Shown: piece by piece, positions 6,299 through 61,745 of the stretch
How positions within the stretch are numbered: the first letter of the stretch is position 1
Layout: the number at the start of each line of letters is the position of its first letter
NCBI GenBank assembly: GCA_973895155.1
Contig: OZ316894.1
Coordinates: 1,115,968-1,179,967, forward strand
DNA from: Marsupella aquatica
Taxonomy: Eukaryota > Plantae > Marchantiophyta
Reading direction: 5' to 3'
DNA length: 64,000 nt
Position numbers and translations under genes: made by a program
Notes under the pieces: generated by a model
Databases searched by the model: none
What the model saw: the letters and a program-made list of their open reading frames with translations, nothing else
What the model was told of the DNA's origin: nothing

Positions 6299-9200
6299 AT
6301 GGCAACAGCGATTAGAGTCACTCTTCTCCGGTTTACCATCATCACCGTTGTCATCCTCGTCAACGGGAAATGGTCTTGTTGGGGTTCTATCCACAGCAGT
6401 CTAGAGAGACATGCTGCAGCGGCGTCAAACGGGATGGGACGAGCCACTAGTTCTCCAGGGTTCAATCTGGTATCCACTGGTGCGTCCAGTCCTACTCTTC
6501 GCACACGCTACAAGATAAGGAGAAGACAACTCTCGTTTGCGCGAAATGAAAAATTCTATCCGATCGAGTCAAGCAAGGAAGTGGAAATTCTCATGTCTTT
6601 CAAGAGTGAAATCACGGGCGATCCGCTGGGAGTGCTGAGCAGCTGGGGTGCAAATGATACTGATCCCTGTAGATGGACGGGGGTTCAATGTTCTCCGAAC
6701 TCCAAGTATGTCACCACCATCGATCTGGAGGGCCGTCACCTGGTAGGAACGGTCTCAACCCTCCTTGGTCAGCTTTCAAATCTGCAGCATCTGGACCTGT
6801 CGAAAAACTTCCTGCACGGCGCAATACCAGCAAGTCTTGGAAACTGCTCCAATCTGTTATATCTCAACATGTCCTTCAATGAACTGCATGGATATATCCC
6901 GCAGTCAATGGGGAATCTTGGCAAACTTCAAAGTCTGGACTTGCTCACCAACAACCTCACTGGAGGAATTCCAGAAGCACTCGGCAACTGTTCGGCCTTT
7001 CAGTATTTGGAGTTAGGTACAAACGTTTTGGACGGTAGCATTCCTTCTCAATTCGGCGCGTTGACCAATTTGCAGTATCTGAGTCTCAGGTACAACTCAA
7101 TTTCTGGCTCCGTTCCACCTTCTTTGGGTAATTTGTCATCACTTACCGAGTTGTGGTTGAATTACAATCAAAGACTGGGCGGAGAGCTCCCGTTCCAGTT
7201 GGGAGAGTTGATTCACATGCAACGTTTTCACGCATTCGAGTGCAGCTTCCAGGGAAGTTTCCCTATGTGGGCCTTGAATCTCACTTCACTGCAGGAACTC
7301 AGATTAGATCGGAATCAATTCAATGGACCATTACCTCAGTCCTGGAGACAATTACGAAATCTTTCCTGGTTGGGATTGGAATCCAATCTTTGGGATGCAT
7401 CTGAGATTCCACGTGATATAGGTGCACTGACTAATTTGCAAAATCTTGACCTCGCGAATTGTGGTTTCGTCGGAGACATTCCAAGATCTGTATTCAATCT
7501 CAGCTCCCTTGTGTCTCTTTTACTGCCCGAGAACCAGCTATCGGGTACTGTCCCAAATGAAATAGGTTTGCTCAGATACTTGAAAGAACTACAACTGGAC
7601 ACGAACGCTTTCAGCGGCGTATTTCCCTGGAACTCAATATCGAATTGTTCACTCTTAGAGGTCCTCTCGGTGGGATATAACCAAGGATTTGATCCTCAAG
7701 GTTTTCCCTCCTGGATAGGATCATTACAAAATTTGCAGAAGTTTGACTTTTCTGAGATGAATCTGCAGGGTGAAATACCCACAGAGATAGGTCAACTATC
7801 CCAACTAAGTTTTATTTCAATGTTTATGAACAATTTGTCGGGAGCGATTCCAGCTTCTCTGAGGAATTGCAGTTTTCTTTCCGTTCTTGATCTAGGCGTC
7901 AATCAGCTAACCGGTCAGGTTCCCCCCGAGTTAGGACACCTGTCACAACTGCTCTTTGTCGCTCTTGAAAGCAATTTCTTCTCCGCTGGCCCTTTCCCTA
8001 CCTTCATCTTCAATCTAACGTCAACCTTGGAGTTTGTACAAGTTGACCATAATCAATTCAACGGGAAGTTAGCTGGAGATTTCGGAGCCTTCCAGCTATT
8101 GAACACGTTTGCTGCTTCACATAACCATTTTCACGGCCCGCTTCCGGAATCCTTCAGCAATTGTTCCAATCTGGTCAATTTGGTTTTGTCAGGAAATACC
8201 CTGAGTGGGGAAATCCCCCTCGGGCTCGGCAATATGACCAGTCTAGAGTTACTTTATGTTGACAGCAATCAGCTTCATGGAAGTATTCAGGGTGACTTCC
8301 TGAGGAACTTTCACTTGATGCAATCCCTTGATTTCAGTAACAATAATTTGAGTGGTACTATCCCAGCAGAGATTGGCCAGCTTGTCTATTTGCAGCAGTT
8401 GAATATGTTTACAAATAATTTCAACGGAGCACTTCCGGATTCCTTGAGGAACTGTACACAGTTGCTAGCAGTGGACTTCTCATACAATAGACTGACCAGC
8501 AGTATTCCCGGGGAAGCTTTTGCAACGATGTCGTTACTGAATAGCTTGAACTTATCGGCCAATCTATTTTCTGGTTCATGGCCATCACAGTTTAGTGCAC
8601 TGCAGCACATTGTTGTCATAAATGTCTCCGCCAACAACATCTCAGGACCAATTCCTCTGGGCCTCGGAGCATGCCTTTCGCTGCGAACCTTGGATCTGTC
8701 TTTCAATCGGTTGTCAGGACCGATTCCTCCAGATCTTGGATTGCTTAAGGATCTTACCACGTTCAATGCTTCTTACAACAACTTAAGTGGGTCGATTCCT
8801 AATTCGGGTGCTTTCTACGCCAATCTGACGTCGGCATCATTTTTGGGAAATCCTGGCCTGTGTGGAGCTATATTGGGGCTTCAACGACTCTGTCCAGTTG
8901 AATCTATAGCGTCGCCAAAGGGGAGATCACATTGCAATGGTTTCGAATGTCCCATTGTGTGGATCTCGGTCGTTTCTGCTCTGGGCTTTGTTATCGTTCT
9001 CCTGGGAGCCTTATATATCTCCTCCCGTTATTACGGCAAGAGAGACAGCGGGAGCGGGAGCGGGGACCTTGGACTCGTCTTATTTACAACTGATCCTTCG
9101 ATGAGGTTCTTTACGAAGTCGGACATACTTACTGCCGTAGGAGCTGGGGAGAACGCTGCAATTGGAAGGGGTCCCAAAAGCATTGTGTACAAGGCTAGTT

Positions 9201-10304
9201 TACCCGGCGGTGAGTTTATAGCCATCAAAGTTCTGCAGGATCGAAGGCCATCTAATATTGAGGGCGGGATTGAGAGACAGAGTCAAGATGAAAAAGAAAT
9301 CTTGAGCGAGGCCCACACGCTTGCTCAGTTACGGCACCGAAATATCATTAAGCTTGTTGGGCTGTACTCTAGTGAGGATATGAAGGCCATCTTGCTAGAA
9401 TACATGCCCAACGGAAGTTTACATGAAAACCTGCATGGAAATGCTCCGTGTGAGTTGACTTGGGTAGAAAGATTCAAGATACTCTTGGGTGTGACCAATG
9501 GAATGGTGTACCTTCACCATGAGTTTCCAGACCCGATCATCCACAGAGATTTGAAGCCAAGCAACATACTTATGGATGCAGATATGGAACCGAAGCTTTG
9601 TGACTTTGGCATTTCCAAGTTTGTGACATACAACAACGGGGACAATGGGGAAGTGTCCGCCTCAACCATTTGTGGCACCTTTGGCTACATGGCCCCAGGT
9701 GAGACTGTTCTACTGATTAATTTACTCTATTCTTAAACTCAATCTGACAGACTGTTCTCCTTATTGACAGACATTAATTTAACGGAACCTCAATAATGTA
9801 CTCTGAGAGACTATTATTTACATACTTAGTACCAAGACTTAGCCTGTTAGTATTGGTTTTTGACTTTATTTTCTTCCATTGGTTGACCCAGAATATGGGA
9901 CAGGTACGAGAGTGAGCACCAAAGGAGATGTTTATAGCTTTGGAGTGGTTCTTCTTGAGCTCTTGACTGCCAAAGCAGCTGGACAAACTCAAAGCATGAC
10001 ACCTTCTGGCCAAGATGAGGGTCTAGTGGCCATAGTACAACATTGTATTCAAGAGTCAAGCATGACACCTGTAGCTACACCAGTAGATGTCCTTGACCCA
10101 ACTCTCAAAATTGAGGGTGCTAGTGATGCTTTCATTGGGCAGCAAATGATGTTAACTTTGCAGTTAGGCCTTTTTTGCACGAGGGCGCTACCTGAAAATC
10201 GTCCATCCATGAATGTTGTGCTGGAGTTCTTAGTTGAAATTGAGAAGATAGGTCAGGGAACAGTTACACAAAGAACTTTGGATGACCTCCTCAGGGACGA
10301 GTGA
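6299..10304 (+). CDS. LRR receptor-like Ser/Thr kinase, copy 2 (LRR-XI/XII-like architecture); exons 6299..9698 and 9892..10304 (alternative ATG at 6278)
   Basis: Signal-peptide-like N-terminus, LRRNT (LSSW...PCRWTGVQC), roughly 30 plant-type LRRs, TM, RD kinase with a single intron at GYMAP|EY (gt 9699, ag 9891). Open through TGA at 10302-10304. Confidence 0.95.
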
Positions 10305-10769
10305 TGTTGTTCCACCTTTGGAAATTAACCAGTCAGACGCTGATATTGTCAGCACTTGTTTGGATTGAGACTGAAATGTATAACATATAACTTGTTGTCT
10401 CCAGCAGGAAAGCTGCTTTGTAATTATGTTGTGTTTAATTTCTGTCTTTCTAGGACGTACGTAGAGATTGAGAGTTTGACACATTGCTTTCAATGTAACG
10501 GAATGTAACGACTTCACTCAATTATTACTAATAAGCCAATAGAAGCCAACGTGACGACAGAAAAATGTAGACGAAAAGAAAAGGGGCAGTAAATGGACAA
10601 AGAGCTTTAGTAGATCAGTGCATATTTCAAACTTTTTCTTTCAGTTGTAGTCCTAGATTATTTTCGCTAGTATCTTGCATGTAGACCAAGTTCTGTTCTA
10701 AAGTGCGTGTCTTGTTATGAAATCTGTCAGTCATATTTTCACTGCCGGGTACTTCCTTACTAAATGTGC

Positions 10770-21016: not shown

Positions 21017-21926
21017 AGGAGTAGAAGTAGTACTGGAGGCTAGACTGATAGTTCTTTCTATCGTGGATTCACTATTAAGTGCCCCATCGGCACCTGTTCA
21101 CTGGCCGGTCTTTTGGAGTTAGCCAATCCATCCGTAGTGGTTAAATTTCTTGTTTGGTTTCCTTTCTTTGGGGCCTACTTCTCTCCTGGTGCCGGCCTCT
21201 CCGGTCCTGTGGGCTCCCCAACCTTTGGTCCCCTCTGATGACCCCCTCTCGTGGGCCACCCTATTTGTATCCCTTTTTGTATGCCGGCTTTTTGGATGAA
21301 TTTCAATTGGTTTTTTAGAGGAAAAAGTATATATATCACTAGTACCGGGAAACACCCAATTTGGGAGGGCCCCAGTGCATAGAGGGAAGCCCATGAGGTG
21401 GGTTTTCTTTCAATATTTGAGACATTTGAGCGGGCATTTGAGACGCCTTAGTGTAGCTAGGGTATTGGGGTAGGAGTAGAAGTAGTACTACAGGCTAGAC
21501 TGATAGTTCTTTCGATCGTGGATTCACTATTAGGTGCACCTGTTCACTGGCTGGTCTTTTGGAGTTAGCCAATCCATCTGTAGTGGTTACATTTGTGGTT
21601 TGGCTTCTTTTCTTTGGGGCCTACTTCTCTCCTGGTGCCAGCCTCTTTGGTCCTGCATGTGGGCTCCCCAACCTTTGGTCCCCTTGATGACCCCCTCTCA
21701 TGGGCCACCCTCTTTGTATCCCTTTTTGTATGCTGACTTTTTGGATGAATTTCAATTTTTTTTTTTTTTGAGGAAAAAGTATATATATCACTGCTGGGAA
21801 ACACCCAATTTGGGAGGGCCCCACTGCATAGAGGGAAGCCCATGAGATGGGTTTTCTTTCAATATTTGATACATTGGAGACGCCTTAATGTAGCTAGGGT
21901 ATTGTGGTTGTCCTAGGGTATTGGGG
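21017..21926. repeat. About 455-bp tandem duplication (2 diverged copies), possibly a retroelement 3' tail
   Basis: aggagtagaagtagtact...gctagactgatagttcttt starts at 21017 and 21472. The units are colinear through ...gagacgcctta.tgtagctagggtatt. Confidence 0.9.
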
Positions 21927-22693
21927 TTTTCCTGGGCAAGCACCCAAAGAAAAGAGGGCGCAAGATTCTCTGAGGGGTCCGGTGCCGTGTACTGAAGCGG
22001 GGTTGCATTCTTCACAGGAGGATACCGTCCGTGTACGCGACACTCATCACATCGACACAACAATCGCAGCAGCAGTTGATTGCCCAATTCGCCATCATTC
22101 GGAACGTGGGTCTTGCCAAGCATCCCCGCAATTTAATAATCATTCCATGGCTGCCTGCGACTCCATCGCACCCCTCCTTGCTTGCTCGCTCCCTATTTAG
22201 CTTCGCCGCGGCCGTCGCTGGAGTCTACATTCCATCGATCCACATCCTCGGATCTCGCTGCGACGCGTTTTACGAACTTTTCTAGTCTATCATATGTTGC
22301 TAGAGAGCCGGGGACTGACGGAGATTCGGGACCCACGCGAGTTTCTGGGTGGGCGTTTGTTGGATTGTAGCTTGTTAGTGATTGGGTCGTTAGTTCGCAT
22401 CCCCGCGTTTGTAAAGTGTGTCGGGCGTTTGTTAAAGTTTGTCTGTTTGGTCGACATCAGTCTGTGTGCTGAGAGAGCAACAACAGCTTCGTTGTTGCTG
22501 CTAGCTCTCTGCTATTAGATCTACCGACATATAACGTGACTGTTGTCGTTGTTTTTTAGAAGAGTCGAGACTTTCCCTGAGATTGAAGTGTGAGGTGTGT
22601 CTTGAGTGGTGTGGAATTGAGCGCTCGATCGTTTTGGATCCGGGAGTAGTGTGCCCGGAGAAACGGGCTCTCCAACAAGGCCTGGGAGTGGAA

Positions 22694-23224
22694 ATGGATC
22701 CCACGAGGGGGCAAACTTTGAGCAGCGGAGGAGGATTCATTGACTCGTCCAAGGTCTTTAACGAGTTCTTCTTCAAGAGCGAGGCCGAGAAGCCAGCCTG
22801 GATGTCGGCTGCCACCGAGAAGTGCATGAACGGGAATACGTCCGACGACGAGGAGAACCTGCTGGATGATGCCTGCTCGAGGTACTTGTCGAGGACATTC
22901 AGCATTGACTCGTCGGGTTATTACTCCAGAACGTGCAGTCTGGAGTCCGAGGACGCATTTACTAACGATAATGAGCCTGAGACGGTGGTGGTGCTCCGGG
23001 TTGCCATGTGCTGTGGGAAATGCGAGAACAAGGCCAAGTCCTTGACGCAATTGGAAGGCGTGACATCGGTGGTGTGCGACAGGAAGACCGAAAAGGTCAC
23101 CGTGACCGGCACTGCACGGCCCAGAGACCTTCTCGAGGCGTGCAAGAAACTGTTCGAGCAGGCCAAGATGTGGAGCCCTGATGATTCTCTCAGCGATCTC
23201 AATTCTGCAGCACTTCAGTGGTAG
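22694..23224 (+). CDS. Heavy-metal-associated (HMA) domain plant protein, HPP type without C-terminal CaaX, 176 aa, single coding exon
   Basis: VVVLRVAMCCGKCENKAK...LEGVTSVVCDRKTEKVTVTG is an HMA fold with a CxxC metal site. Acidic/Ser-rich N-terminus. Confidence 0.85.
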   Translation: MDPTRGQTLSSGGGFIDSSKVFNEFFFKSEAEKPAWMSAATEKCMNGNTSDDEENLLDDACSRYLSRTFSIDSSGYYSRTCSLESEDAFTNDNEPETVVVLRVAMCCGKCENKAKSLTQLEGVTSVVCDRKTEKVTVTGTARPRDLLEACKKLFEQAKMWSPDDSLSDLNSAALQW

Positions 23225-31295: not shown

Positions 31296-32705
31296 ATGGA
31301 AGGCACCCCTGAAGAAACGGGGCAGTTGGAAGGGAGACGATCCTTACTTAAAAACCAGCAAGAAGGTTCGCCCATGGCAGATGTATTCAGATCGTTCGAA
31401 TTTATGGAGGAAAAGTCTGGCTCCGGCCGAACTTTGCGTTGCAGAACTCTGGGCCACGTTGACTACTGTTTCCTTATTATGTAATCGTGCTCAATCCTGG
31501 GGACTGTTTGGCTAGGTTGGAGATATGACAAGTTTGAGGGAATTTGGAGCTTTTGGCAGAACTCCAAGTTGGAATATGACTCCGAATCATTATCCGGAGT
31601 GAACATCAGCATTGTGACGAGGGCTTTGGAGAGTGGTGCAGTTTGCCTGGATGGATCACCCCCTGCATACTTCCTTGATAGAGGCGCTGGTGAGGGTGCA
31701 AACAACTGGCTCCTTTTCACGCGGGGGGAGCTTGGTGCCAAAATGCTGATAACTGTCTACAACGTTCATACACAGAACTGGGTTCATCCAGGCAAATGCC
31801 ACGTCGTGTTTGGTTTGAAGGCATCCTCAGCAGCTCTCCTGCTGCCAACCCAGATTTTTACAACTGGAACAGGGTATTTTTGAAGTATTGTGATGGGGCT
31901 TCTTTTAATGGAGATGTAACCGAAGTGGGGTTGGACACCAATTCCTGAATTGATGGTACGCCTCTGGTTGTCTTCTACCGAGGGCAGAGAATATGGAAAG
32001 CTGTAATGGGAGAGCTTATGGAGAGAGGCATGAAAAATGCTCAGAAGGCATTTCTTTCTGGTCGCTGAGCAAGGGGCCCAACAATCCTGCATTGTGATCA
32101 GTACCGGGACATGATACCAAACACAACGGCTGTCAAGTGCCTCAGCGATGCTGGCTTTTGTTTTGACATACCAGATGTCAGTGGGGTGCAAATCATAGAA
32201 GTTTTGTATGCTTGCGCTGTCCAATTGCAGAACATGGTTGAAAATTCGCCAAAGTATTGTACCTCTGAAAGGGAGGCAACTTGGTGCATTTTCCCTGAGT
32301 ACATCATAACAGGATTAAAAATACCGTTATTCATCCTCAATGCAGGGTACGATTCATGGCAGATGGACAACATTCTTGTTCCACCGACTGCCGATGCTAC
32401 AGGCATTTGGGATGACTGCAGGAGTGCTCTCTCATTATGTTCTGATGCCCAATTCAGGGTTGTACAAGATTTTCGGGATAGCCTTCTGAAAAAATTACAA
32501 CCACTCCTTCAAAGGGAAAAAGACGGGGCATTTTTCTACTCTTGCTATTACCACTCCCAAGCTCAAGATGGTGAAACCTGGAATGGTCCAAAAGTTGACA
32601 ATTAAATCGATTGCACAAGTTGTTGGAGATTGGTACTTTGAGCGTAATTTTACAAAAGTTATTGATTGTTCATTTCAGTGTAACCCAACCTGTCCAGAGT
32701 CTTGA
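31296..32705 (+). pseudogene. Pectin acetylesterase (PAE/Notum family) pseudogene, intronless
   Basis: [80 protein letters not shown]. Stop at 31482-31484, frameshifts near 31725 and 32603, and the GCSAGG nucleophile codon is TGA (32066-32068). Confidence 0.9.
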
Positions 32706-34099: not shown

Positions 34100-36104
34100 C
34101 AAACGACTGTGATGAAGAGAAACTGCAATTAAAGCCGGAACCGGCTATAAGTGTGCTTGCGTTACATGTCTAGGGGTGCTTCCCTGAACCGCCCAGCGAA
34201 CCAATCTAATCTCCAACCCATGCAACTCCACTCTCCTCGTCAAATCATCCCCTCGAGTCTCCCCCACTCACTGAACATTCTCTCCACTGCTGACTCTCCT
34301 GCAGCCAGAATTCGGCCAAAGCCTCTCAATTCCCGAAGATAGTGATGCCTGTCTGTGCTGAAGACATGGTAGTGGATGTCATATAGCACATTGGCCATGA
34401 CGACCTCCGTCGGGTATGGCCAAGAGTAAGTGGGAGAGTAAGAGGTGCACAAGCTGACGGGAACTCCCGCATGTATTGGCAAAAGGTGCAACTATGTTGA
34501 CACTAGCTGCAACTGTGAACAGAACTACAAGGAGAAGTGTCGGCACTATTTGGGGCTTTATCCCCGGAAGTAAGATGAGGGTACATCTTTATGAGACGCC
34601 AATTCCCAGCCCGGGAAGCGATTGAACGAGCATCTTCCATGGTTCCACCAAGGATGGGTGACAATCATATTTGGCGCCGCGCGGAAGCCCCTCTCCACAA
34701 TTGACCAGCTTCATATGAGCCTCCCGCTTCCGAAGACAGAAATCGATGTCTTCTCCTCCACCCGTCTTGGGGAATCTGGGATCGAACAAAATGTCATCAT
34801 TGTTGCGTCGGATCAGGAGATTTGCAGTGACTCCCCAGGGTATATCTTTGCTCTCAAGTACGTCGTCACACCCCAGAAGAATGTCACACCTGACATCACT
34901 ACTGCACTCGAGACCACGCTGTTTGTGGGATCTGGGAGTTCGGTGTGGCCAACAAACCCGCAGGCCTTAGGATACCGCCGAATCATTTTTTCTGCTTCCA
35001 GAAGAATACGAGGATCAGGAACGACGTCGTCATCGAGGAATAGCACGTAGTCCGCAGCTGATTCTGCTAACCCGCAATTACGAGCTTCACTTGCACCTGT
35101 GTTGGTAACGTTAATTCACCCGGATACAAATGAAGGCATCGGGTTCGTGTCGCTTCTTCAGCTCCGGAATGTCTAGCGAGAGTCGGTCGTCGACTATGAG
35201 TATGGTCATGGTCGAGCAAGTTTCAGACGGCTCCAGGTTGATGATGTTCTAGATACCCAGGAGTGGGGACTACAACGTCCAAAGTGAGAATTTCAAGAGG
35301 AAAATCTTGTGATAGAGTACTTTGGTGTTGCGTCAGCCACCGTCTAACCTTTGCAGCACCATCGTCAAGGGCATAAAATGTCCAATCGTGACGATGTTTC
35401 TTTCGATAGCGGGGCTGTTTGCTTCCCCCCATTGTGTTTTCTAAAACAACGTCTTTAATAAGCATTAGGGAACCCCATCTCCAATAAAGTTGAAACAGAT
35501 ATGGATCTCCATCTTGGTTCTAAAACTCCTTCGGAAGGATTTCTCCGTTGAATATCTCCAAATGAATTCGCCCCATGACAGGAAAGGTCCAGAATCCAGG
35601 AGAGTAGCCATCGGAGAAAGAAATACAGCCAAACCCTCGAGGGACTCCTCCCTTAGATTCCAACTCGCAGAACGCTATGTCGAAGCTGGACATCCAACCT
35701 GGAGTCTTGAGAACAATGTTGTCACCCAGAAGGACTGTGTAGTGACACTGATCTGTATGCGCTCTCCTGGCAAGGTCCCGCCATATTGCACACATAGAGC
35801 CAGAAGGGTAGAAGAACACCATCGTCTCCACATTTTCAATTCCATGCTCTGTAAGGACCTGCTCAACTGTGTTGCTGCTTGACAGAAACTTGTCACTCTC
35901 ATCAACCCCAATATAGACCTTCAGCTCGTATCCGACATCACGGATCTTGCAGACATCGCAAGGACATGTGTCTCCTTCCGTTGTTTCTTTGAGGCTCTTT
36001 GAAAAGTTCCTGAGACCAAGAATGCAGCCATCTTTGCCTCGGAGACCTCTGGAGGTAACCAGAAGAAGGACACCGAACTTTACACTTCGTGTATTGAAAT
36101 CCAT
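34100..36104 (-). pseudogene. Two-domain glycosyltransferase family 2-like pseudogene with C-terminal TM region, intronless
   Basis: VLLGDNIVL, GFGC, F*NQDGDPYLFQLY (TAG 35520-35522), LDVVVP, GASEARNCGLAESAADYVLFLDDDVVP (DxD), FPKTGGGEDIDFCLRK, HPWWNHG, RMFSEWGRL. Several frameshifts and stops. The 3' boundary is approximate. Confidence 0.8.
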
Positions 36105-36889
36105 GATCTCAATAAGCGCTAAAGAGAATTTGAATCCAGTTCACTGATCACAGTCACCGACTTATCACAAAACAGAAAAGAGTTTGAATTACGGACAATA
36201 CACTTTGAAAAGGCACTTGCTGTTCAGGCTGGGGCTCATATATATATAGACAGAGCCTCGGGGCGATCAGGAGACACGAGAAGGCTTGCTCGTTGGAATG
36301 GATTGGAGAGATCATGTTCGATCAGACACGCTGGGGCTAGAGCCTAGAACGTCTTGGGAGTGAGAATCTTGTCGACCTGATTTCACCGGGGTTCAGCTTA
36401 ATCTGCACGAGTGTTAAGTGTTACTGGGAAATTCCTTTATTGTTGCCCATCGGGTAGTAAGTTATTCAATTCCATGTTGCCCATCTACGCTTTATTGTTG
36501 CCCACTGGTTCCTCCCTTTTCAATGCTGTTTTGTCTATGGGTGTTGACCATTGTTCACACCAAATGAAGATATGAGGTTTATGTCTATGTTTGAAAGCTA
36601 CCCAGGGTGCAAGGATACACACTTAAGTGTAAAGTTTACTTGACATTAGTTGTGAGAGCAAGCAGTTCCTTGCAGCGAGTGAGGTTCCAAGCGCAAGTTA
36701 AGGGTCAACCCGCTTTTGCACAAACCTTCATCCCAAAGTGGTGTTCACCAAAGCCCTTTGCTCACAAAAAACTTACTCTTAGAGTTCAATGTCTCTCGTA
36801 TCATAAATGGAAATGGGAGGCATCTAAAGGCATATACCCCCACCAAAGAACAAAAAGCTCCAAACTAGGAGACAATATCCCAAAGGTAG

Positions 36890-38577: not shown

Positions 38578-39611
38578 AAAGGGTTGGAATACATGAGTTT
38601 CCAGGAACTGTCACCTGAATCTTGAGAGCCACCTCGTTTAATGTCATGGGCACCACCTCCACATTTGAGTACCGCGCATTGAATGCCACCACGTCTACAT
38701 TTTGCGTACATGCGCATTGAACGCAGGCATATCCTTACGACTCTGCTGACGTTCACCCAACTTGGGGAGCAACAACGGTGAGAGTAGCTTGAAGCGGAGC
38801 CTATCGGTAGACTGTCAACGTTTTCCCGTTCGTCGAAAGTGGGATCGTCGAATTCCACAGCTTTCTCGAGACTCCGTCAGATTGACGTGGCTTGCAGACC
38901 ATGACGAAGTACTCTAATATTCTATTGCACACAGATCTTCCATCGTTCAAACTGTTGGCGGCGACTGGTGGGCCACCAGGCCCATAGACCCATGTGACAT
39001 GCCGACAGACGACGGTGCTCGACATCGCGGAAGGAAAAGCCTGTCACTTCTGCGATACAAGGTGGGAACGCGATGTGTGTGAGCGAGAGTAACTTCGAGA
39101 GTAACGTTCCAACTATTCCTGTCTCCGTGCTAATTCGTGAGAGACGACCGTCCTCCATTTGTTACCGAAAAGACATCAGTTCGACTGGACACATTCGAGT
39201 TTTGAGCATCATTGGCAATGAGTGGGCCTGAGCATTAAATTCCCTCCTGGAGGTCTTTAACAGTTCGAATGGTTTAGTTCGGAACTCAATTGAGACATAG
39301 AACGTTTCAGAACCATTCACAACGTTGGGCGAGAGCTTTCAATGCACTGTGCAAGAGGCTTTCGACAGTTTGAAATGTTAGATCCCCCCTTCATTGAAAA
39401 TGACAATGAATAGTATTTACAGTAACTTAATCTACATCATTCTGTTGTGGTCGAAGTCGAGTTGCAGAGCATGAGCACGTACTCTAGTAACCTTCCCTAC
39501 TCTATCGAGATAGACAATCCTAGAAGATGGGACGAGCAGCTTGTGCTGATAACATACAGTACTTGATTCGCCCTTGTCTGGAATGATTGGGCACGCAGGC
39601 CGTTGGCAAGG

Positions 39612-41852
39612 TCACTTCATACTCGAGTGTTGGAGTCTTTTCACCTGCGGATTTCCGAGGGTGGAATGCACAAACCCATATTGCTCTAGAACCTGATTAT
39701 CAGCGAAATCGAATGCGCGTTTGAGTTGGGATCGACACTCATCCACCTCGAAGTTCCCCTTCCTATCCCCGCAAGGCTGGCAGCCAGCGAAATGCGTGAT
39801 CCACGGCCAGCTCATTGACCCAAATCCCTGATCGGCCTTCGACATGCTCTCGTACCTGGGCGCGATTAACTTCCAGTACCCGCTCATGCTGAATTCCCTC
39901 TCGAGGCGGATCCTCGGAATCCATTTTTTCTCCTTCTCTTCCTTCTCCATCACCAGCATGTAGAGGAGGGCCGACTGATCATCTGCAGCTGCACCTAAGT
40001 CCCGCCCGACGAGCACTTCCGATGCTCGCCTCCCAGACTCTATTCTCGCTTGCTTGGTCCCTAGACTAGCCCAGACGTCGAACAGGTCTAGAGTCCACTG
40101 GCAGTTTCGGGCGAGATAGACCCCGGCGTTGACTGCAATCCAGTCATTCACCGCAAGAAGCTCGGCATCCCCATAGAGAACAAGGTTTTGACCCTTAAAC
40201 TTCTCATATGGAGGAGTGAAAACCATATCGGTGATAGCAGCGTCGCCATCGCACCACCAGAACCATTCCACATCGGGGTGGGAGAGCATGAGAACTCGAA
40301 TCGTGGGGATCTTCGTCCACCAGTAATCCAGCTCCCGGTCGAAATCGACCTGGCCGTAGAACATTGACATGTCGTGAAAGCGACCATAATCCACCTTGTT
40401 CTTCAGCGCTTGCAGAAGACCGTGACCTCCGTCAGGATGAATGCACTCTCTCGTCGATGAACCAGTGACGATCATAGTCTTCGGCAGTCCTTCGTCATTG
40501 ACCCTCTTCACGCCGGGGTTCTTCTTGAACCAGGCCTCGCGCTGAGCGTCCCAGTTCTCCACCCTGGGGCCGGGGAGTTTGTGGATGCCGAAGCCTTTAT
40601 AATCAGGAAGAGGCACTTGAGGGGACGGGACAACATTCTCGAACATATGCCCAGGAATAGGGACCAGCTCGTTGATACCAAGTCCGCGGAGCTGATACCC
40701 ATACCTCCGATACACCTGCTGATCCGCGAAATCCATCGCACGTTCCATCCCTCGCCTGCATTTTTCCCACGGGTAAGCTCCCTTTCGATCCCCACTGGGC
40801 AAGCAACCGGTAAAGCGCGTCACGATAGGCCATCGAGGATCTCCACGGCCATAACCCTCCAGCTCCTCCAGCTCCTCGGTCACCGAGGTCCAATCCCTGT
40901 TGAGGTAAATGTCCTTCTCCAAGTAAGTCTTCGCATACCACACCGATTTCTCTATCGAGAGAAGGTACACTAGAGCTGATTGATCATCAGCTTCTATGCC
41001 CTGCGGTCGATCCTGGAGAGAATCAGAAAGGAAATTCCCGACGGACTCTCTCTGGTGAACGTTTCCCATGGAGGCCCAGGCGTCCAACAGGTGAAGTGAC
41101 CACTGGCAATTCCGAATGAGAAAATTCCCTGTACCGAGGCCCTTCCAGTCCTTCAGCTCGAAGACACGATGCTCATCTCCAAAAACGACCAAATTATAGC
41201 CCTCGTATTTGTCTAGAGGAAGCTTGAACTCCATGTCAATGATCACAACGTCGTTGTCCATCCACCAGAGCCATTCCACCTCTGGGTGAGCCAACATCTG
41301 CATCCGCAACACCAGGAGCTTGGTCCAGCTCCCTACAAAATCCTGGTCCGGTTCCATTAAATTATAAAACAGCTGGAGATCGTGTACTCGTGAGAAGTGG
41401 ACCTTGTTCTTAGCTGTTTTGAGGTACATGTGCGTATCGACAGGATTCTCGCATCGGGATGGCTGCGAGCCCGTGACAATCAAAACCTTCGGCCTTCCAG
41501 CTCGAACATCAGGATTCTTTTGCCACCAGCGAGTTCGTTGGGAGTCGAAGTCGACCACTCGAGGCATTAAGGCAAACGAGGTGTTCCTCTCCGTCGCAAT
41601 TTCTGGTAGTGCGTTCGACGAGACGGATATCTCGTAACTGCGGATTTTCAAGAGCTCCTCGCTGTTGCCATGGGGTATGTCTTCAAAGTTTCCTGGACCT
41701 AATAACATGCACATCATTAGCAATGCGAACACGATGATGCCTAGTACTTTAAATGGTTTCTTGCAAGAAACTCCTTTGGGATTCTGGACGCTGCTTAGAC
41801 TCCATCCTTTGCCGCCCCTGGACGAGAATTTAGGATCCTTCATTGTCGACAC
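39612..41852 (-). CDS. GT34 family glycosyltransferase (xyloglucan xylosyltransferase / galactomannan galactosyltransferase-like) with two tandem GT34 domains, 746 aa, intronless
   Basis: Type II TM anchor, then twice: D.QR..W...NP, IVTGS, KNKV, W.K, MLxHP.VEWxWWxDxD, G..L.RNCQW.L.L.D.WA, ADDQSAL.Y, T.F.GC.P, RA.DFAD.QV. Confidence 0.93.
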   Translation of the reverse strand: MSTMKDPKFSSRGGKGWSLSSVQNPKGVSCKKPFKVLGIIVFALLMMCMLLGPGNFEDIPHGNSEELLKIRSYEISVSSNALPEIATERNTSFALMPRVVDFDSQRTRWWQKNPDVRAGRPKVLIVTGSQPSRCENPVDTHMYLKTAKNKVHFSRVHDLQLFYNLMEPDQDFVGSWTKLLVLRMQMLAHPEVEWLWWMDNDVVIIDMEFKLPLDKYEGYNLVVFGDEHRVFELKDWKGLGTGNFLIRNCQWSLHLLDAWASMGNVHQRESVGNFLSDSLQDRPQGIEADDQSALVYLLSIEKSVWYAKTYLEKDIYLNRDWTSVTEELEELEGYGRGDPRWPIVTRFTGCLPSGDRKGAYPWEKCRRGMERAMDFADQQVYRRYGYQLRGLGINELVPIPGHMFENVVPSPQVPLPDYKGFGIHKLPGPRVENWDAQREAWFKKNPGVKRVNDEGLPKTMIVTGSSTRECIHPDGGHGLLQALKNKVDYGRFHDMSMFYGQVDFDRELDYWWTKIPTIRVLMLSHPDVEWFWWCDGDAAITDMVFTPPYEKFKGQNLVLYGDAELLAVNDWIAVNAGVYLARNCQWTLDLFDVWASLGTKQARIESGRRASEVLVGRDLGAAADDQSALLYMLVMEKEEKEKKWIPRIRLEREFSMSGYWKLIAPRYESMSKADQGFGSMSWPWITHFAGCQPCGDRKGNFEVDECRSQLKRAFDFADNQVLEQYGFVHSTLGNPQVKRLQHSSMK

Positions 41853-43800
41853 TGATGGCCTGTCACAACGAAATGTATCAATTCCTCACAAATCTCACGA
41901 GTCTTTCCTCCTTTTGAAGAAAAACCGCACTGGAGTGCGCTTGACGATGATTTTCATCAGGCACGTCAAATCGAACCAATCTCTGCTCCATCAGCAGCGC
42001 CTCGTTGTAGTTGCCGAGCAAGTAGCTCAAGATTGTAGAGTACACAGGGATATAAGCAAAGGCGGCGCATGCAGGGAGAGTTGTTTGCCTCCCGAGGACC
42101 AGCTATTGTCGCGTAGCTTAAAGGGGCTCCCTAATGCAACAATGTTCGAGACGACACAAATTCCGAGCTACTGTTGCAACGAGCCAGTCCGCGCTTATCA
42201 AACAACGGACAGGTTGCTGCCAGCGCGTGGAGGGACGCTTTATGAGGGAAACGAAGCATCCATCATCAATGCTCCTCGTCCAAAGTTTGAAACCCGAATC
42301 CAGAGAGTGCACAGTTGCACACAACCCCTACGTAAACCTCGGCCTCAATCTACGGTACTGTAAGTAGCGACGAAATGTCCTCTCGAATCTGTCGTCCAAC
42401 TCATCCATCTGCAATCCTGAGAATGCACAGTGGAATCATACCGGGCAACTTTACCTCCGCCAACCTATTAATGATGCTCCTCCGACAAGCTTCGGAAACA
42501 CCAGCCTCTCTGCCCACACCCTCCTGGATGCACTTTTCCCCTCCCACTCCGACTTCCGTCATGCGAGCTCACCCTACAGTAGTCCATAGTCCATACCCAC
42601 GGACGAGAAGACGAGGGCTACCTCTGTTGTTGAAATCACGCACGTATATTTAATAACCCGGCTGGACGTTACATAAACGTGAACTACGCCGAGCACTGTA
42701 GTGCTGAACTAGAAAAAGTTACTGCAACGTTAGTCAAGTACGCACATGCCCTCCTCGGCTCCTCGGCAGCCTTATTATCGTGGAAGAGGATTTCAAATAC
42801 CGTCTGTCACAAACGAACGTGGCTAAATCTCTTCGAGCACATATATCATTCTGACGGACCCGACCTATCCGTGATCAATCACTATTTCGTGGCAAAGAAC
42901 GTGCAGTACATTTGAAACAGAGAAGTCTCTGTGGAGCCCACACGGTGCTGGATAAGTCTTGTGGAGCCCGGAAGGTCCTGCAGCAACAACAGTAGTGAGG
43001 GCCTGTTCAGTGGATGGGAATCAGCTTATTTTTTTAGGGCTTTTTTAATTTTTAGCCAGTGTATGCCTAATGTTTGCTTCTCTAAGGGAGGAGATTCTAG
43101 GAATCTTCTCTAGGAATCTTCTCTATCAGATTTCGCTGAAGGAAATCGTGACCGTCAGATATCCCGAGATTTAAGGAGAACCGTTCGATTCTGACTAATG
43201 GGTCCATGATTTGGTGGAAGAGTGGCTAATGGTGTTAAAAAATATAGCAAATATTAGCCAAAAGTGGCCAACATTTTGGGGGAGGGGAAATTTGGCTAAA
43301 ATTTACACTTTTAAAATAGGCTGAAGAGAATCCCCGGTGAGTCGGTGACCCTGTCTTTGGATTCAGCACGATTGGTGTCTGCAAGAATTAATGTTGTACA
43401 GCTGTACGCTCATTAAGGCACTATTACACAATTGATAGGAGCAGCACCCTGCACCTAGATTGACGACAGCAAAGCTACACTCGTGAACGACTCGATGCTC
43501 CATCTCTACAGTTCTTGGTCGTCTGGTGGCCTTTGCTTTGCTCAGGTTTTTTAATCATGAGAAACATGATGTGTGTTCCATGAGGTATGCGAGAGTCCAC
43601 TCTGCAGAAAGAGCTGCTAGGCTTGAGTCCACTGGTGGATTGATTTTTGACATGGGGAGACACACTAACTCACTGTTCTGTAAGTTAAGTTTTGGGACAG
43701 CAACTGAACAGCACCGCAAATGGCACTCCATCGCCGGATTCTAAGGAAAGTCATGAACGACAAGGTCCGTAGAGGTCTACATGTGTGTGAAATGACACGA

Positions 43801-44318
43801 ATTTTCTACATTGCCATCTTTTTGTTGCATAATATATATATACATCGCCACCATTGTTTTTCTATTTATCAAATTGCCATTGTTTAATCCGTGGTCAAGA
43901 AAAGTAACCCAGCTTAGCTCCTCAGCATCCAACGGCTGTCTGTGCTCCCCCTGTCAAAATCCCGATCAAGATCTGATGGCGTTGGATTCCCTCAGTCTCT
44001 TCTTTGACCACCCTTGTGTCAGTTAACCCCAATGTGGTTCAGGAAGGCTAGTCATGCTATAGGGCAAGGGCGAGAAGGGGCACCGTTGGGGGCAGGCAAC
44101 CCACCTTTTAGCCAGCTGATCCGAGAGTGGTCAAACATGAGACGGAAGGAATCCGGAGCCATCAGATCTTGACAAGGGAAGCACAGACAATCGTTGGATG
44201 CTGAGGAGCTAACCTGGGTTGCTTTTCTCATTTAACCCACAGGTGGCACTTTGATATTAAATAGAAAAACTTTGGTGGAAATGTATGTTGCAACATAAAA
44301 AATGGCAATCTAGTAAAT
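43801..44318. mobile_element. Foldback / MITE-like element with long (about 210 bp) imperfect terminal inverted repeats
   Basis: aacccagcttagctcctcagcatccaacg...tcaagatctgatggc on the left is the reverse complement of gccatcagatcttga...cgttggatgctgaggagctaacctgggtt on the right. The ends attgccat / atggcaat also pair. No target-site duplication found. Confidence 0.85.
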
Positions 44319-56680: not shown

Positions 56681-58838
56681 TCAATTGTGTGCGTTTGGTT
56701 GGAAGAAAAAAGTGCCGTGATCTGAATCGTCTGAAACTGCCCACGAACCCTCCATGACCACTTTCAGTTCCTCCTGTCCCGTTGCAAGAGAATGACCAAT
56801 GGCTCCCATGTAGAATACTGCGGGCCTTGCTTTGTACTGCTTGATCATTGTTACCAATGCGTACTGACTTTCCTGTTGGAAGCGACCTGTAGATCACTCG
56901 GTAGATCATGGAGACACATTTCAAAGATGGACAGAGTAAGTAATTTGAAGTGCGTAACACAATTACAACAGTTCCACTAACGCTCTGAATTTGTCTTCAA
57001 AAGCATCACACAACTCACCTAACCAGGTGTAGCCGATCATTTCGTCCACTCCACTGCCAAAGATGTTATTTGAATTTGTGAAGAGAATTCCGCCAATCAT
57101 TCTAACTTTCGTATTTTGCTGTATGAAGAAACCCTTCCAGAGCTGCATCACCCCTACCTGCACAATTCGAGCTTCCGCTCCATTTGCAACTGACTGACAG
57201 CTCTGCAGTTCAAGGTGGAAATTGCTTTGTAACAAGGATCCAGACTTCCAAGTGCCATCCATGATGTTTTCCCTGATCTCACCATCGTACTGCACGCTGT
57301 GCTTCCCAATGTACTGCTTGATGAAGTGAACCCTGGTCCCTCTGCATTCACCTGTAATTAATCACAACCTTGAACATCAGACTGCCCTTGATGAGGCCAA
57401 TTTAACGCATGTAGAAACATCGCTAAAAATTGTAGCCAGAGATACAACGCTCTTGCTCTTCAAATTGAAAGTAAGCATTTGACTTAAACTAGTACAAGGG
57501 GTTGGTCCACTTTTTTAACAAAAACAAACGGACTTAAACTTGTATATGTGAACAAGCTTGCTTACAATTGGGGAAAAAGAACGGAAAAAGGAACTGAACG
57601 ATCTGTGGAAATAGTCGATATGCAAAGATTTGACATGACTTGGTGTCTGGGTATATTGTAGTTTACCTTGGCATGTGAACAACCCGACTTCATCACTACC
57701 ACCACCACGAATTCTGTGGTTGGCCGCAACGACAAGTTCCACAGTCATAGCACCCTGTTGGGAGCCTTGCGTCCAATATCCAGTCCAACATTGCACCTGA
57801 CTTGTCTCCGTCGTGGAAGCCTTTACACCGCTATCCTATACAATGTAAAGCAGATTTCCCTGTCAGTGCTTTCACGCACAGCCATGTAATTCGATTGCGA
57901 GCTACAACTACTCGAGATTCATGCCGACAGAGATCTGGATAAGGGACTATTCAGGACTGATGATGAACAGAACGGAAACTGTTTAATTTGACATCAATCA
58001 CATTATCAGCTTACAAGAAGGAGCTGAGCTCAAGCTGACATATGACAAGCAATCTCAAACACAAACAGCGCACCTGCGGCTCAACGGAGAAGTGCTTGAC
58101 AGGTCGCTGATCACCAAGGACGGTGCTGATAATGTTCTCCACAGAGCTCTGAGGAGGCTGGAAAAGGTTATTGATCTGCCAGGGGCCAACCAAACAGTCA
58201 CCGTAAAGAAGTGCTCTGGCTTGGAGCTTGGCTTTGTTACTTGAGGCCGAGGGACCCGATAGAAACTGACGCGCAACGGGAAAGTCGTGCAGCAACTGAT
58301 CCCAGAAATGAGGCCATTTCGCCTCGAAAACGTTCGTCAATCTATTTCTCCAGAATTCTCGCATCTGCGGGTGCTCGATGCGCTCGGACGGTCCTCTAGA
58401 AACCACGTTCTGCAGTATGTAGCCCCGATAGTCAGCTGCGTGAGCATCCAGCCGCTTCCACAGATCCGCGGAGTCCAACTCCACGTCATTGCCATTCACA
58501 AATCTTTCCATCCATCGTTGTTGCAGAAATTTCTCCACAAAGCCCACCACTTCCGTCATTGTGGCTCGGAAGCTGTTCACAAAAGCTTTGAACTCGTCGT
58601 TTTGAGGCCTGGATTCCGCTACATACTGCTCAAGCATGCGAGAAAGCATGAGAGACCGCTCCGACAGCTGCACTACCAGCTTCTGATTCTCCTTACTCAC
58701 ATCCTTCGCATCCAGCGAATTGGCCGTCAAGAGAGCCACCTTTGCCATCAATTCGACTGCCGTATCAGCTGGCGGCGGCAGAATCTGTGCAGCTTGTCCT
58801 AGTGTGACTGATAGCATCTTCCATGTACTACTCGCCAT
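56681..58838 (-). CDS. 490-aa protein: MLKL/RPW8-like N-terminal four-helix bundle + Cbl EF-hand-like segment + two tandem beta-rich repeats; exons 58838-58074, 57835-57667, 57351-57019, 56886-56681
   Basis: All three introns are GT-AG with consistent phases (0,1,1), giving one open frame to TGA at 56681. The internal repeat W.G...Q...M.......I.G.G.DE.....G......IKQY.....V.Y.G......M.G.W occurs twice. Domain names are motif-based inference. Confidence 0.8.
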
Positions 58839-61745
58839 GCCGTTATAGGACGTCTCTTGCAACACTCCGACCGGCGGGAGCCCGAGCTTCCACTATTCTA
58901 AATGCTCACCTGGTCGTCAAGAAGGACTGCTCAACGAACGTGAGAAAATCTTTCTAGGAGGAGAATGAATACTTGCTAAATTACTTCGCAGGACACTCCG
59001 GTCGTATCACAAATTTCCTTACGATTGGAGATTTACAGCTCCACTTCAATCATCCTCCGACCATCAATTATGTACCAATTAGGATGACCAAATCCTGGAT
59101 ACTCAACCAGTTTGTACAAGATTCAACTTACCAGCGTCGGCTTACGGGAGTTCAGCCGCCAAACAAACCACAAGTTGCCAGAGAGATTGTGATCAAACTG
59201 CGAGTGATGCTCGGAGTGATGTCCACAGAGCTCAGAACTAGTTCTAGTTGGCGAAATCTTGTCGGCAAATATTCAATTCAAAATTCAGGTACTTCCAGAT
59301 TCGGCCATCTATTTCTGGATCTCAATTGTTTTTCAGGGCTTTCAGAGATAAGGGGACCAGAAGGTCTTGTCTTTGGTCAGCGAGGAAATGCCTGCAACAC
59401 GTAAGCAGACGCTGTTGAATTGACAGAAATGTCCTCACGAATGGTAAACTCCGAGCAAGCATTCAACGGCAACTTAATTGCAGTTCATGACATTACAATA
59501 TAAACGCTTGTTCTGAATTGACATTACTGCCGCAAAGTTCGTCGATCATAAAGCACATTTGCCGGCCAGGACAGTCAGGGGTGGTGAGGACTTTGGCACC
59601 CGTGAGGATGACGAACAACAACGAAGCGTGAAGCTGTGCCAAGTTTGTCTTAAGGCTCATCGATGCATTCAAAGCGTGCTTTTTTAATTGGCGAAAATAC
59701 GCCAAATACGTTGGGATAGCTAGTGCGACCTTAGCAAAGGAAAGTTTTGACAAAAAAGAAACACTCGTCACATGCTGAGGTGACAGAAGTGTGTAGTGAG
59801 GGGCACTCCTCCCAAGCCACTGTTGGGCTTGATCGCCAATGTCCTGCCACACATATTTACTTGATCCCCAGTGTCTTCCCACAAAAACACACTTGATCGC
59901 CACTTCCTGCTCACAGACCTACCCAAAAATTTGGAGCTGATAATCTGAGCTTGAATCTACACCTACCCAAAAATTTGGAAAATGTCGATAAATTCTAGAC
60001 GACATCGGTAGAAATTTCTCATAGATTCCTTTCTGTGCCCCTTCAAAGATTTGGGATTTGTCCCTGCACGCGAGAAAATTAATATTGACCGAGTCATGCC
60101 TGGAGGACCTAAGGTGAACTTTACAAAACCAGAGGGAGGATCTTGGGTGAATTTAACAGAAGGGTGGACAAAGCTGGTGGTCACTTTCACCAGATAAACA
60201 GATAAATTCAAGAGTTTTCATAGTTGACTCTAAAACTAAGCTCCAATAAATTGTTAAGTTTGACAAGATGCTCTTATCGATCACTAAAACTTACATCAAC
60301 CATCTTCAGAAAATACTAAAACCAAACTTGTGTACCCCACTTCATTCCTACGAGATACCACCGTAAGGAATCGTACATCTTTTCCACTATCGTGTAGCTC
60401 ATACGGCGGGAGTATTAGTTTGTGTAGCCTGAGAATCAGAGGGCAGCAACTATGAGTGTAATACCTGGGAATGATGCTTTCGAGTTCCATCCAGTTCCTG
60501 AGGGTTTCGTCGTGATCATAAGGCCCCCAAAAGCACCCAGTCAAGGCCACCAAGGGATGCCAAAATAACATCCTTACCCTTATATGCTTTATGGAGATGT
60601 TAAAATACCTGGTGCAGGGATAGGATTGAAATTGTCCAAAGGCTTCGCAAAACAGATTTATAATTTCTGAGGTTGTCTATGTGCCTCTCAAGCTATCATT
60701 GCTTTCTTTCTTCTGCTTCAAATGAGGGAGGTGAAACTTGCAAAACTTCCAATGGCATCGTATGATGTTTTTAGTGCCACATATCAACCAATTTCGGATG
60801 GGCTGACATATTTGTCTTGGCAACTATGTTTCAAGCTTTAAATTCAGAAATTTCTCTACCCAGATTTCTTCTAGCCTGAAGCGTCCAGTGTCGAGTGCCT
60901 AGTTCTCCCACTCACAAAGGCTGCCCTGTACCCGAGTATGTACACTAAACTCATTATCTAGAGCGACCATCACTTTCATAATTCAATTCGACAGTAGTGG
61001 AGAGAACTTATATCGGAAACAGTCTCGTTCCTTTGATAACGCATGGTAATTCAAGTTTTCATGCTCTATCCAAAAGGTTTGCTTTGGTAGTCAACACCAG
61101 GTAAGGAGAAGTTTTCAACGACCATTACTCAAACTGGCCTGTAAGACCTCGTTTGAGTACGCTCATTAGTTCAAAGATAACGTTTCTGTCATCGATTGTG
61201 CTAAAGTAGCGCTCCAAACATAACGTATGATAGTGTTATACCGCTTCGTTTGTAGAGCACGTTTTGGCTACTTCTTACCTGTACCTTGATCCTACCCAAG
61301 CCGTCAGGTACATATTCACGAGATGGTTCTCCATATGGCCAGTGTTTTGAAGTGTCAAAATTGAGCTGGTGTCGGCATACGATGTACAAGACTGAAAATC
61401 ATGTACTACCCAACAACATTTACATGAAACTAACCTCAGCTCCTGGACAGTTGCACGACGGATCTACAGTACATAGAGCACCAAACAAAAATAAGTACCA
61501 TTCTGTAGACGCCAAGGCACACACAAGATTGAGTCGCCACAGTAAAAAGAACGAGTTAGTTCCTCTGCTACCGAGCAGAGCCTTCTGGTTATTTCACAAT
61601 TCCAAAAATGGAAATCTCGGCTACAAAACTGCGAGATACTTGGGCCTTCTGTGCCACTGCCAACGCCCCCTCCCCCTTACGAACCGCACCCGAAAGAAGA
61701 AGAAAGAAAATCTCGCTAAGATTCTTCTGTCTGCTGCTTGCCTGT

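Follow-up and report, generated by a model that had tools for sequence, protein, structure and literature searches.

How dimers of Golgi glycosyltransferases set the patterns of plant polysaccharides is an open question, and a gene of the liverwort Marsupella aquatica raises it in a particular form: what are two GT34 glycosyltransferase domains doing on a single polypeptide chain when one of them has lost a metal ligand? The gene lies on the minus strand of a 64,000-nucleotide stretch of contig OZ316894.1 (assembly GCA_973895155.1, positions 1,115,968 to 1,179,967), referred to here as the window. Our answer, to which we give a slightly better than even chance, is that its product is a single-chain pseudo-dimer in which domain 2 is likely to be a working Mn-dependent transferase and domain 1 a weak or dead built-in partner.

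The open reading frame (Table 1) extends without introns or stops from an ATG at 41843 to a TGA at 39614-39612 and encodes 743 residues. The first-pass annotation had set its end at 41852, at an in-frame GTG nine bases upstream of the ATG; its frame and stop stand, and the ATG is the likelier start because relatives begin at the same methionine. An intact reading frame with a single membrane anchor and two complete GT34 domains, as that annotation described it, is borne out by the reading frame itself, by hydropathy, by Pfam and by a hidden Markov model (HMM), and all four motifs that it quoted (WMDND and VTRFTGCLPS in domain 1, WCDGD and ITHFAGCQPC in domain 2) are present in the protein. Pfam family PF05637, for which two hits had been expected, matches in two stretches (E 1.4e-78; 264 bits against a cut-off of 23), and a whole-domain HMM built from 98 single-domain relatives finds both domains complete, with 355 bits for residues 90-394 and 350 bits for residues 422-736. 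The two are 41% identical, a mutual likeness no higher than that to distant GT34 proteins. They are joined by a linker of 27 residues, with neither a second membrane anchor nor a stem before domain 2, and the sole hydrophobic segment, residues 31-49, reaches a Kyte-Doolittle peak of 2.49, the only one above 1.6. The predicted one-anchor type II topology fits the CAZy GT34 and Pfam PF05637 family, but characterised plant GT34 enzymes (XXT, MAGT) carry one catalytic domain per chain and this protein carries two. No second GT34 copy was found within the 64-kb window.

The same layout recurs in other liverworts. Eleven double-domain proteins occur among the 120 best of 664 hits in a homologue search, five from Calypogeia fissa, one each from Marchantia polymorpha and Marchantia paleacea and two each from Riccia fluitans and Riccia sorocarpa, and every one has exactly one hydrophobic segment. 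An HMM scan of 341 collected proteins returned these 11 and the window protein together with a triple from Papaver, two weak doubles and three fragmented matches; no further full double was present among the best 120 of 1107 profile-search hits or, P0007 aside, among the best 150 of 599 50% representatives. On present lists, therefore limited to the matches listed, the double-GT34 layout appears to be liverwort-specific, the homologue and profile searches giving top hits only, beyond which moss or hornwort doubles could lie. A close single-domain copy of domain 1 was absent from 84 shorter proteins. The closest relative among the matches listed is a Calypogeia fissa orthologue, 76% identical, a degree of likeness by which the window would most likely come from a leafy liverwort akin to Calypogeia. 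The Marchantia polymorpha double, P0004 (MARPO_0024s0013), has 830 residues and is 43% identical to the window protein; it corresponds to Mp3g22350, because the cloning primers for that gene encode the first and last residues of P0004. Table S3 of PMC12398305 has 87 rows including Mp3g22350, equal to the number of entry clones reported to have been made from cDNA, and the gene has been cloned full length from cDNA. The same paper lists it as a GMGT/MAGT orthologue, naming it only in a table, and the passages found there carry no remark on two domains. Expression amounts to 7-9 transcripts per million in thallus and 18-25 in four other tissues (eight sample rows, with columns counted by hand).

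These relatives also bear on whether the double reading frame could be spurious, with two tandem genes run together through a missed stop or faulty assembly, which we regard as hardly credible. Such joins do exist in databases: the 1290-residue Papaver entry has as many membrane segments as domains, three of each, and, most plausibly three gene models run into one, was rejected as a relative. Here, however, there is no further anchor or stem ahead of domain 2, 5 species supply 11 other proteins with the same layout, the linker is spanned by contigs of runs X2 and X5, a single 2685-base contig from another organism covers 39549-42117, and with it the whole reading frame, in one piece at about 88% identity, and the Marchantia gene exists as a cDNA clone. 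For the window's own sequence no RNA run was listed, X11 being RNA only by guess.

Some side observations concern the same sequences. Over window positions 39500-42600, run X1 contains two sequence types about 4-6% apart, which may represent a duplicate of the gene, a homoeologue or mixing within the sample. In two Riccia sorocarpa proteins, P0017 and P0018, domain 2 lacks the first 42 model positions, the first strand included, by gene-model error or real shortening. P0297, P0300 and P0349 show a second double-GT34 layout, consisting of an N-terminal hydrophobic segment, a PAN domain, a GT34 domain without DxD, another PAN domain and an intact GT34 domain; it is apparently independent of the liverwort layout, and its first GT34 domain is again the dead-looking one. 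In P0275 a GT34 domain is fused to a sulfotransferase domain.

The condition of the two active sites can be judged against XXT2 and XXT5, where Mn is held by Asp228, Asp230 and His378 (PMC13376630), in agreement with the earlier statement that a histidine joins the DxD motif in binding Mn2+. Domain 2 has all three ligands (Asp532, Asp534 and His684) and the DDQ motif (Asp621-Asp622-Gln623); the metal site of domain 1 is incomplete, with Asp196 and Asp198 kept and the histidine replaced by Arg343. The asparagine of the DND motif of domain 1 was considered as a further sign of damage and rejected, as it fills a variable middle position between two intact aspartates; stronger signs, alongside Arg343, are Gly237 and Ser350 in place of XXT2 Asn269 and Cys385. 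Asn269, Lys207, His347 and the Cys pair probably have roles in donor or acceptor binding, as their conservation suggests. A sequencing error was rejected as the source of Arg343: its CGC codon, at 40817-40815, reads the same in the contigs from X1 (record 1), X4 and X5, the X5 contig being a variant about 4% different in DNA that keeps the Arg codon and has a Cys codon at 350; X1 record 2 and X11 are unreadable at this codon, which falls near their aligned ends.

Across the 12 doubles, domain 2 shows no departure at nine core positions in any protein (12/12) and domain 1 at least one in 10 of 12, against 17 of 227 single-domain proteins, a comparison tempered by the choice of the nine positions after an initial look at conservation and by their not including Asp318, a position at which one Riccia domain 2 has Glu. 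Over the 93 columns conserved in at least 90% of the single-domain proteins, domain 1 departs more than domain 2 in 11 of the 12 doubles with one tie (20 departures against 11 in the window protein), the 12 representing three lineages rather than 12 independent tests. The varied damage in Riccia and in the Calypogeia paralogues looks like erosion, and by these comparisons domain 1 appears to be the degenerate half, here and across the family, its active site having been eroded repeatedly. The first-pass annotation was right to call this domain degenerate; its term non-catalytic goes further than the residues do, since GT-A enzymes without the C-terminal His are not always inactive (PMC7185993). 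A literature search found no report of an XXT2 His378 mutant.

The arginine had been read as the design feature of the fusion, and this does not survive comparison: it was rejected as a family trait, because 7 of the 12 domain-1 sequences keep the histidine, among them both Marchantia proteins and all three copies of the Calypogeia fissa orthologue. Four Riccia domain-1 sequences have Ser or Asp instead. As the Calypogeia fissa orthologue and Marchantia retain the histidine and Riccia has Ser or Asp, the residue has been lost at least twice, and recently, with the Riccia loss a separate one; its loss is not what defines the fusion.

Several facts weigh against a weak or dead domain 1. In the two Marchantia proteins this domain is unchanged at all nine core positions, and in the closest orthologue it departs at one of the nine, so that domain 1 may be active across much of the family; in the window protein it retains the DxD and DDQ motifs and the equivalent of Lys207. 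GT-A enzymes may, besides, swap the histidine for water or lose the metal altogether (PMC7185993, PMC7948508), and the catalytic roles that we propose for both domains are read from sequence and models. The intact Marchantia residues and the retained DxD and DDQ speak also for a one-chain counterpart of XXT2-XXT5, with both domains active but differing in donor or acceptor preference, and with Arg343 binding the diphosphate or a water molecule completing the metal site. This alternative, which we consider unlikely but worth keeping in view, gains from the persistence of the Arg codon in the variant about 4% different in DNA, from the compensated loss of the histidine in GT6, GT13 and GT64 (PMC7185993), from the use of Arg or Lys by metal-free GT-A enzymes (PMC7948508) and from acceptor subsite positions that differ between domains 1 and 2 (Ser320 against Leu659, Lys234 against Ile569). 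It has to contend with the absence of Arg at the His position from all 227 single-domain GT34 proteins, with the accompanying loss of the conserved Asn and Cys, and with four damaged states of domain 1 in Riccia (Asp-to-Asn, Asp-to-Glu, His-to-Ser/Asp and Asp-to-Val) that resemble erosion, not tuned specificity.

An IQ-TREE phylogeny of 48 rows (22 double domains and 26 single-domain proteins chosen from the 227; Riccia sorocarpa P0017 and Papaver excluded) placed all 22 double domains in one clade (98/97), apart from the XXT-containing clade (99/94), the oil-palm GMGT clade and a liverwort single-domain clade. Within it the domain-1 sequences group together (90/85), and constraining domain 2 to one group improves on the free tree by 2.4 log units. 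An 86-row FastTree agrees, though it includes one long single-domain protein. Neither double domain was placed in the XXT1/2 or the XXT3-5 clade, and the phylogeny of separate domains that had been recommended thus supports a domain-1 group without yielding an XXT2-like/XXT5-like split. Forcing domain 2 together with the GMGT clade, where MAGT is represented by a single named GMGT and by three relatives that are unnamed or from ferns, costs 26 log units; a MAGT origin of domain 2 is disfavoured yet not rejected (p-AU 0.093, approximately unbiased test), and the same is true of a separate duplication in the window's lineage, 6.9 units worse (p-AU 0.29), both of which count against the history preferred here. 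Residues specific to one position and shared by all three lineages favour a single origin: in XXT2 numbering, Ser347 and Leu201 in domain 2 (12/12 each), and in domain 1 a small residue at 176 (12/12) and Met213 (11/12). Since both domains come from one lineage, the fusion is most likely to represent one internal duplication predating the split between the Marchantia and Calypogeia lineages, and not the joining of two specialised enzymes, such as an XXT2-like and an XXT5-like gene. The hard-wired heterodimer of the first-pass annotation is accordingly upheld as a single-chain double GT34 predicted to form an XXT-type pseudo-dimer, and abandoned as a fusion of specialised enzymes.

The pairing itself is predicted by AlphaFold2. 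The model of residues 88-743 has a predicted local distance difference test score (pLDDT) of 89 and a predicted template-modelling score (pTM) of 0.92, the latter implying a fixed arrangement of the two domains. Its fold is predicted to be GT-A, like that of XXT1 (PDB 6BSU), which is the best structural match (root-mean-square deviation 1.6 A over 322 columns, Z 36.8; by sequence E 6.6e-94), and in the model the domains pack through the XXT dimer face. When folded as separate chains, the domains scored 0.90 against 0.10 for the best of 3 controls, on a pairing mark attained by 51 of the 78 solved complexes and by 2 of the 108 mismatched pairs and, for eukaryotes, by 39 of 65 complexes without a like complex and 2 of 126 unrelated pairs; the runs share at least 90% of contacts, with partner pLDDT at least 86. 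A point on the other side is that this score may reflect only likeness to solved XXT dimers. The mapping to XXT2 numbers reproduces every residue named in the passages of PMC13376630 within the domain core, and on this mapping the predicted interface contains, in each domain, 11 of the 13 published XXT2-XXT5 interface positions. The dimer face is predicted to be formed by helix alpha2 and strand beta2, as in the XXTs, with reciprocal Tyr192-Lys177 contacts and with Ala144 opposite Leu480 on the axis. Lys177 and Tyr192 are invariant in 12/12. Residues 391-395 at the close of domain 1 and 424-425 at the opening of domain 2 are both placed at the predicted interface, so that a short linker is enough. 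The small-against-large pair at position 176, present in 12/12, is such as might be expected of a face freed from symmetry. In a model of the Marchantia paleacea protein both domains fold, at lower confidence (pLDDT 71, pTM 0.74) and with about 140 disordered residues, so that it contributes little.

A complete fold for domain 1 would also suit a non-catalytic glycan-binding module holding the polysaccharide near domain 2 and setting the density or spacing of side chains, and in agreement with this the DDQ motif is kept in 9/12 and the side-chain patterns of XXT and MAGT enzymes are set by residues of the acceptor cleft (PMC13376630, PMC11785759). We judge it quite unlikely, given that the subunits of the XXT1 dimer face opposite ways and probably act on separate chains (PMC9201394), and that cleft position 347 is Ser in 12/12 domain-2 sequences but varies among six residues in domain 1, a poor fit to a conserved surface for binding. 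The orientation of the XXT1 subunits is likewise hard to reconcile with the first-pass suggestion that both sites pattern one chain, which by this analogy becomes the less likely arrangement. Alternatively, domain 1 could be a passenger in slow decay after duplication, selected for nothing more than doing no harm, with domain 2 working alone or with another partner. Two Calypogeia paralogues in which it is heavily degraded (departures at 30 and 34 of the 93 columns), and Calypogeia gene models with domain 2 alone or a cut domain 1 (P0345, P0346, P0348), point in this direction, but we find it very unlikely: domain 1 has stayed in frame and full length since complex thalloid and leafy liverworts parted, its identity to that of the Calypogeia fissa orthologue is 77% against 82% for domain 2, and its interface residues Lys177 and Tyr192 do not vary.

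The pseudo-dimer with one working site, which we prefer, would have arisen as follows. Its basis is the layout seen in complex thalloid and leafy liverworts alike, one chain and one anchor with two complete domains, which are predicted to pair via the alpha2/beta2 face while the 27-residue linker bridges the domain ends beside it. An old internal duplication would have made an obligatory GT34 dimer intramolecular; stem-guided finding of a partner and a symmetric interface would then no longer be needed, and the face could become lopsided, domain 1 presenting a small side chain where domain 2 presents a large one. Domain 1 would remain under selection for its fold and interface, its active site eroding independently in several lineages, in this gene by the changes His-to-Arg, Asn-to-Gly and Cys-to-Ser. 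It would offer domain 2 a surface to pair with, much as happens in vitro with XXT2, which even when catalytically dead stabilises XXT5 and makes it more active (PMC13376630). The weakest step is the reaction: domain 2 would transfer a sugar in the Golgi from a uridine diphosphate (UDP) donor to O-6 of a beta-1,4 hemicellulose, giving alpha-1,6 side chains.

As to the product, the motifs NAG and GCQPC occur in domain 2 of the window protein, of its Calypogeia orthologue and of the Marchantia and Riccia proteins, and are carried as well by database proteins named galactomannan galactosyltransferase; their use as a MAGT-like mark is a reading of the alignment and not a published definition, and GCQPC is found too in liverwort single-domain proteins outside the double clade. 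Marchantia walls are rich in heteromannan and xyloglucan (PMC12398305). Domain 2 is not placed with the MAGT proteins in the tree, and the MAGT-like motifs are missing from a second group of Calypogeia sequences; both facts make the donor a guess, in which galactose on (gluco)mannan has marginally the better of the chances, xylose on xyloglucan is a good deal less probable and another donor or acceptor slightly less so again. A wider proposal, which we hold to be rather unlikely, is a family of liverwort pseudo-heterodimers predating the thalloid/leafy split in which domain 1 has a job of its own, according to lineage a second sugar, a metal-free Arg-based site or a glycan-holding module, and which together make a liverwort-specific side-chain pattern unmade by known XXT or MAGT enzymes.

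A one-chain version of a GT34 dimer fixes the pairing, and each site can be switched off separately, free of the mixtures of homo- and heterodimers that trouble work on the XXTs. The family offers a series, running from an intact domain 1 in Marchantia, by way of a single change in the Calypogeia fissa orthologue, to a missing metal ligand in this gene and in Riccia, in which the formation of a pseudo-enzyme would have been repeated within one family. Its Marchantia member is a gene of a transformable model with a published entry clone and is directly testable. There is a warning as well: Mp3g22350 is not the ordinary GMGT/MAGT orthologue that its listing suggests.

Table 1. Parts of the Marsupella aquatica double-GT34 gene, in window positions; residue numbers are those of the 743-residue protein.
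Feature	Position	Strand	Basis
Coding sequence, double-GT34 type II membrane protein (743 residues + stop), intronless	39612..41843	-	Open reading frame, Pfam
N-terminal tail, residues 1-30, cytosolic (side inferred from type II topology)	41754..41843	-	
Transmembrane segment, residues 31-49, single	41697..41753	-	Kyte-Doolittle
Stem, residues 50-89; holds the only N-glycosylation sequon (Asn87)	41577..41696	-	
GT34 domain 1, residues 90-394, active site apparently eroded	40662..41576	-	HMM, conserved-column comparison
Ala144 (XXT2 Ile176), at predicted dimer axis; A/S/G/T in 12/12 domain-1 sequences	41412..41414	-	
Domain 1 DxD, Asp196-Asn197-Asp198, two aspartates intact	41250..41258	-	
Gly237 replacing conserved Asn (XXT2 269); Asn in 219/227 single-domain proteins	41133..41135	-	
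Domain 1 DDQ motif, 286-288, intact	40980..40988	-	
Arg343 (CGC) replacing Mn-binding His (XXT2 His378); single-domain proteins: His 223/227, Arg 0/227	40815..40817	-	
Ser350 replacing Cys (XXT2 Cys385) invariant in 227/227 single-domain proteins; run X5 variant: Cys codon	40794..40796	-	
Linker, residues 395-421, without second membrane anchor	40581..40661	-	
GT34 domain 2, residues 422-736, active site apparently intact, MAGT-like NAG and GCQPC motifs	39636..40580	-	
Leu480 (XXT2 Ile176), predicted to face Ala144; L/M/F in 12/12 domain-2 sequences	40404..40406	-	
Domain 2 DxD, Asp532-Gly533-Asp534	40242..40250	-	
Domain 2 DDQ motif, 621-623	39975..39983	-	
Domain 2 His684, third metal ligand by homology	39792..39794	-	

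The window as a whole is plant nuclear DNA, as judged by matches to a leucine-rich repeat (LRR) kinase, a heavy-metal-associated (HMA) protein and a pectin acetylesterase. An LRR receptor kinase is encoded at 6224-10304 (+), and a tandem paralogue of it, truncated at the edge of the window, lies at 1-2628 (+) and matches 7956-10592 at 92%. A protein with a C-terminal heavy-metal-associated domain follows at 22535-23224 (+), and pectin acetylesterase matches at 31485-32605 (+) lie in two frames 190 bases apart, a frameshifted copy or one with a short intron. The gene fragment at 35223-36140 (-), with an in-frame stop at 35522-35520 and a weak deaminase match (PF18785, E 0.022), is probably a pseudogene; a motif in it, without Pfam support, is reminiscent of GT-A glycosyltransferases. 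An open reading frame at 58011-58892 (-), possibly an immune-type gene, is weakly similar to the N-terminal four-helix domain of MLKL, at a level below the cut-off (E 0.0023). There are also an imperfect inverted repeat of about 520 bases (43801-44318, 67%) and a tandem duplication of 450 bases (21017-21908, 87%).

Dimers and heterodimers of GT34 enzymes have been described before, as have transferases of two domains of which one is ineffective (PMC13376630, PMC9178029), and double sequences are already in public databases under plain names. A literature search, thin on subscription papers and reaching neither the CAZy module lists nor the PMC12398305 supplementary figures, either of which could mention it, found no description of the double-GT34 architecture; the Marchantia gene identifiers surfaced only in PMC12398305 and its preprint, with one mention each, word searches of the accessible text of PMC3342304, PMC12398305 and PMC8211770 gave no remark on two domains, and a search for pseudo-glycosyltransferase literature gave 0 hits. 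A single-chain GT34 pseudo-dimer that is spread across liverworts and has seen one of its sites erode repeatedly is thus apparently undescribed. The nearest counterpart is the Arabidopsis XXT2-XXT5 heterodimer (PDB 9P3J/9P3K), called the only solved plant transferase complex (PMC13376630). It has the same GT34 fold and DxD plus His metal site, the pseudo-symmetric alpha2/beta2 interface that is predicted here, and unequal partners of which one is able to stabilise the other; unlike the liverwort protein, with its one chain and one anchor, it is the product of two genes with two anchors and stem-guided assembly, and both of its partners are active with intact metal sites, where domain 1 of the Marsupella protein lacks the histidine. 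The XXT1 homodimer, the closest solved structure, is symmetric, with identical single-domain chains and a xylose donor (PMC9201394, PMC13376630), and it has NTG and GCKPC where liverwort domain 2 has NAG and GCQPC. These last two motifs are shared with the GMGT/MAGT/MUCI10 mannan alpha-1,6-galactosyltransferases (PMC11785759), which are single-domain and in the tree fall outside the double clade. Mp3g22350 has the same single-anchor double-GT34 layout and belongs to the same clade, but its domain 1 keeps the His, Asn and Cys. Among further two-domain transferases with one ineffective domain are LH3, with its accessory domain, and CHPF. EXTL3 is a tandem transferase too, with one domain kept though catalytically ineffective (PMC9178029); it joins GT47 to GT64, whereas the liverwort protein consists of two copies of one family that, as predicted, rebuild the dimer of that family in one chain.

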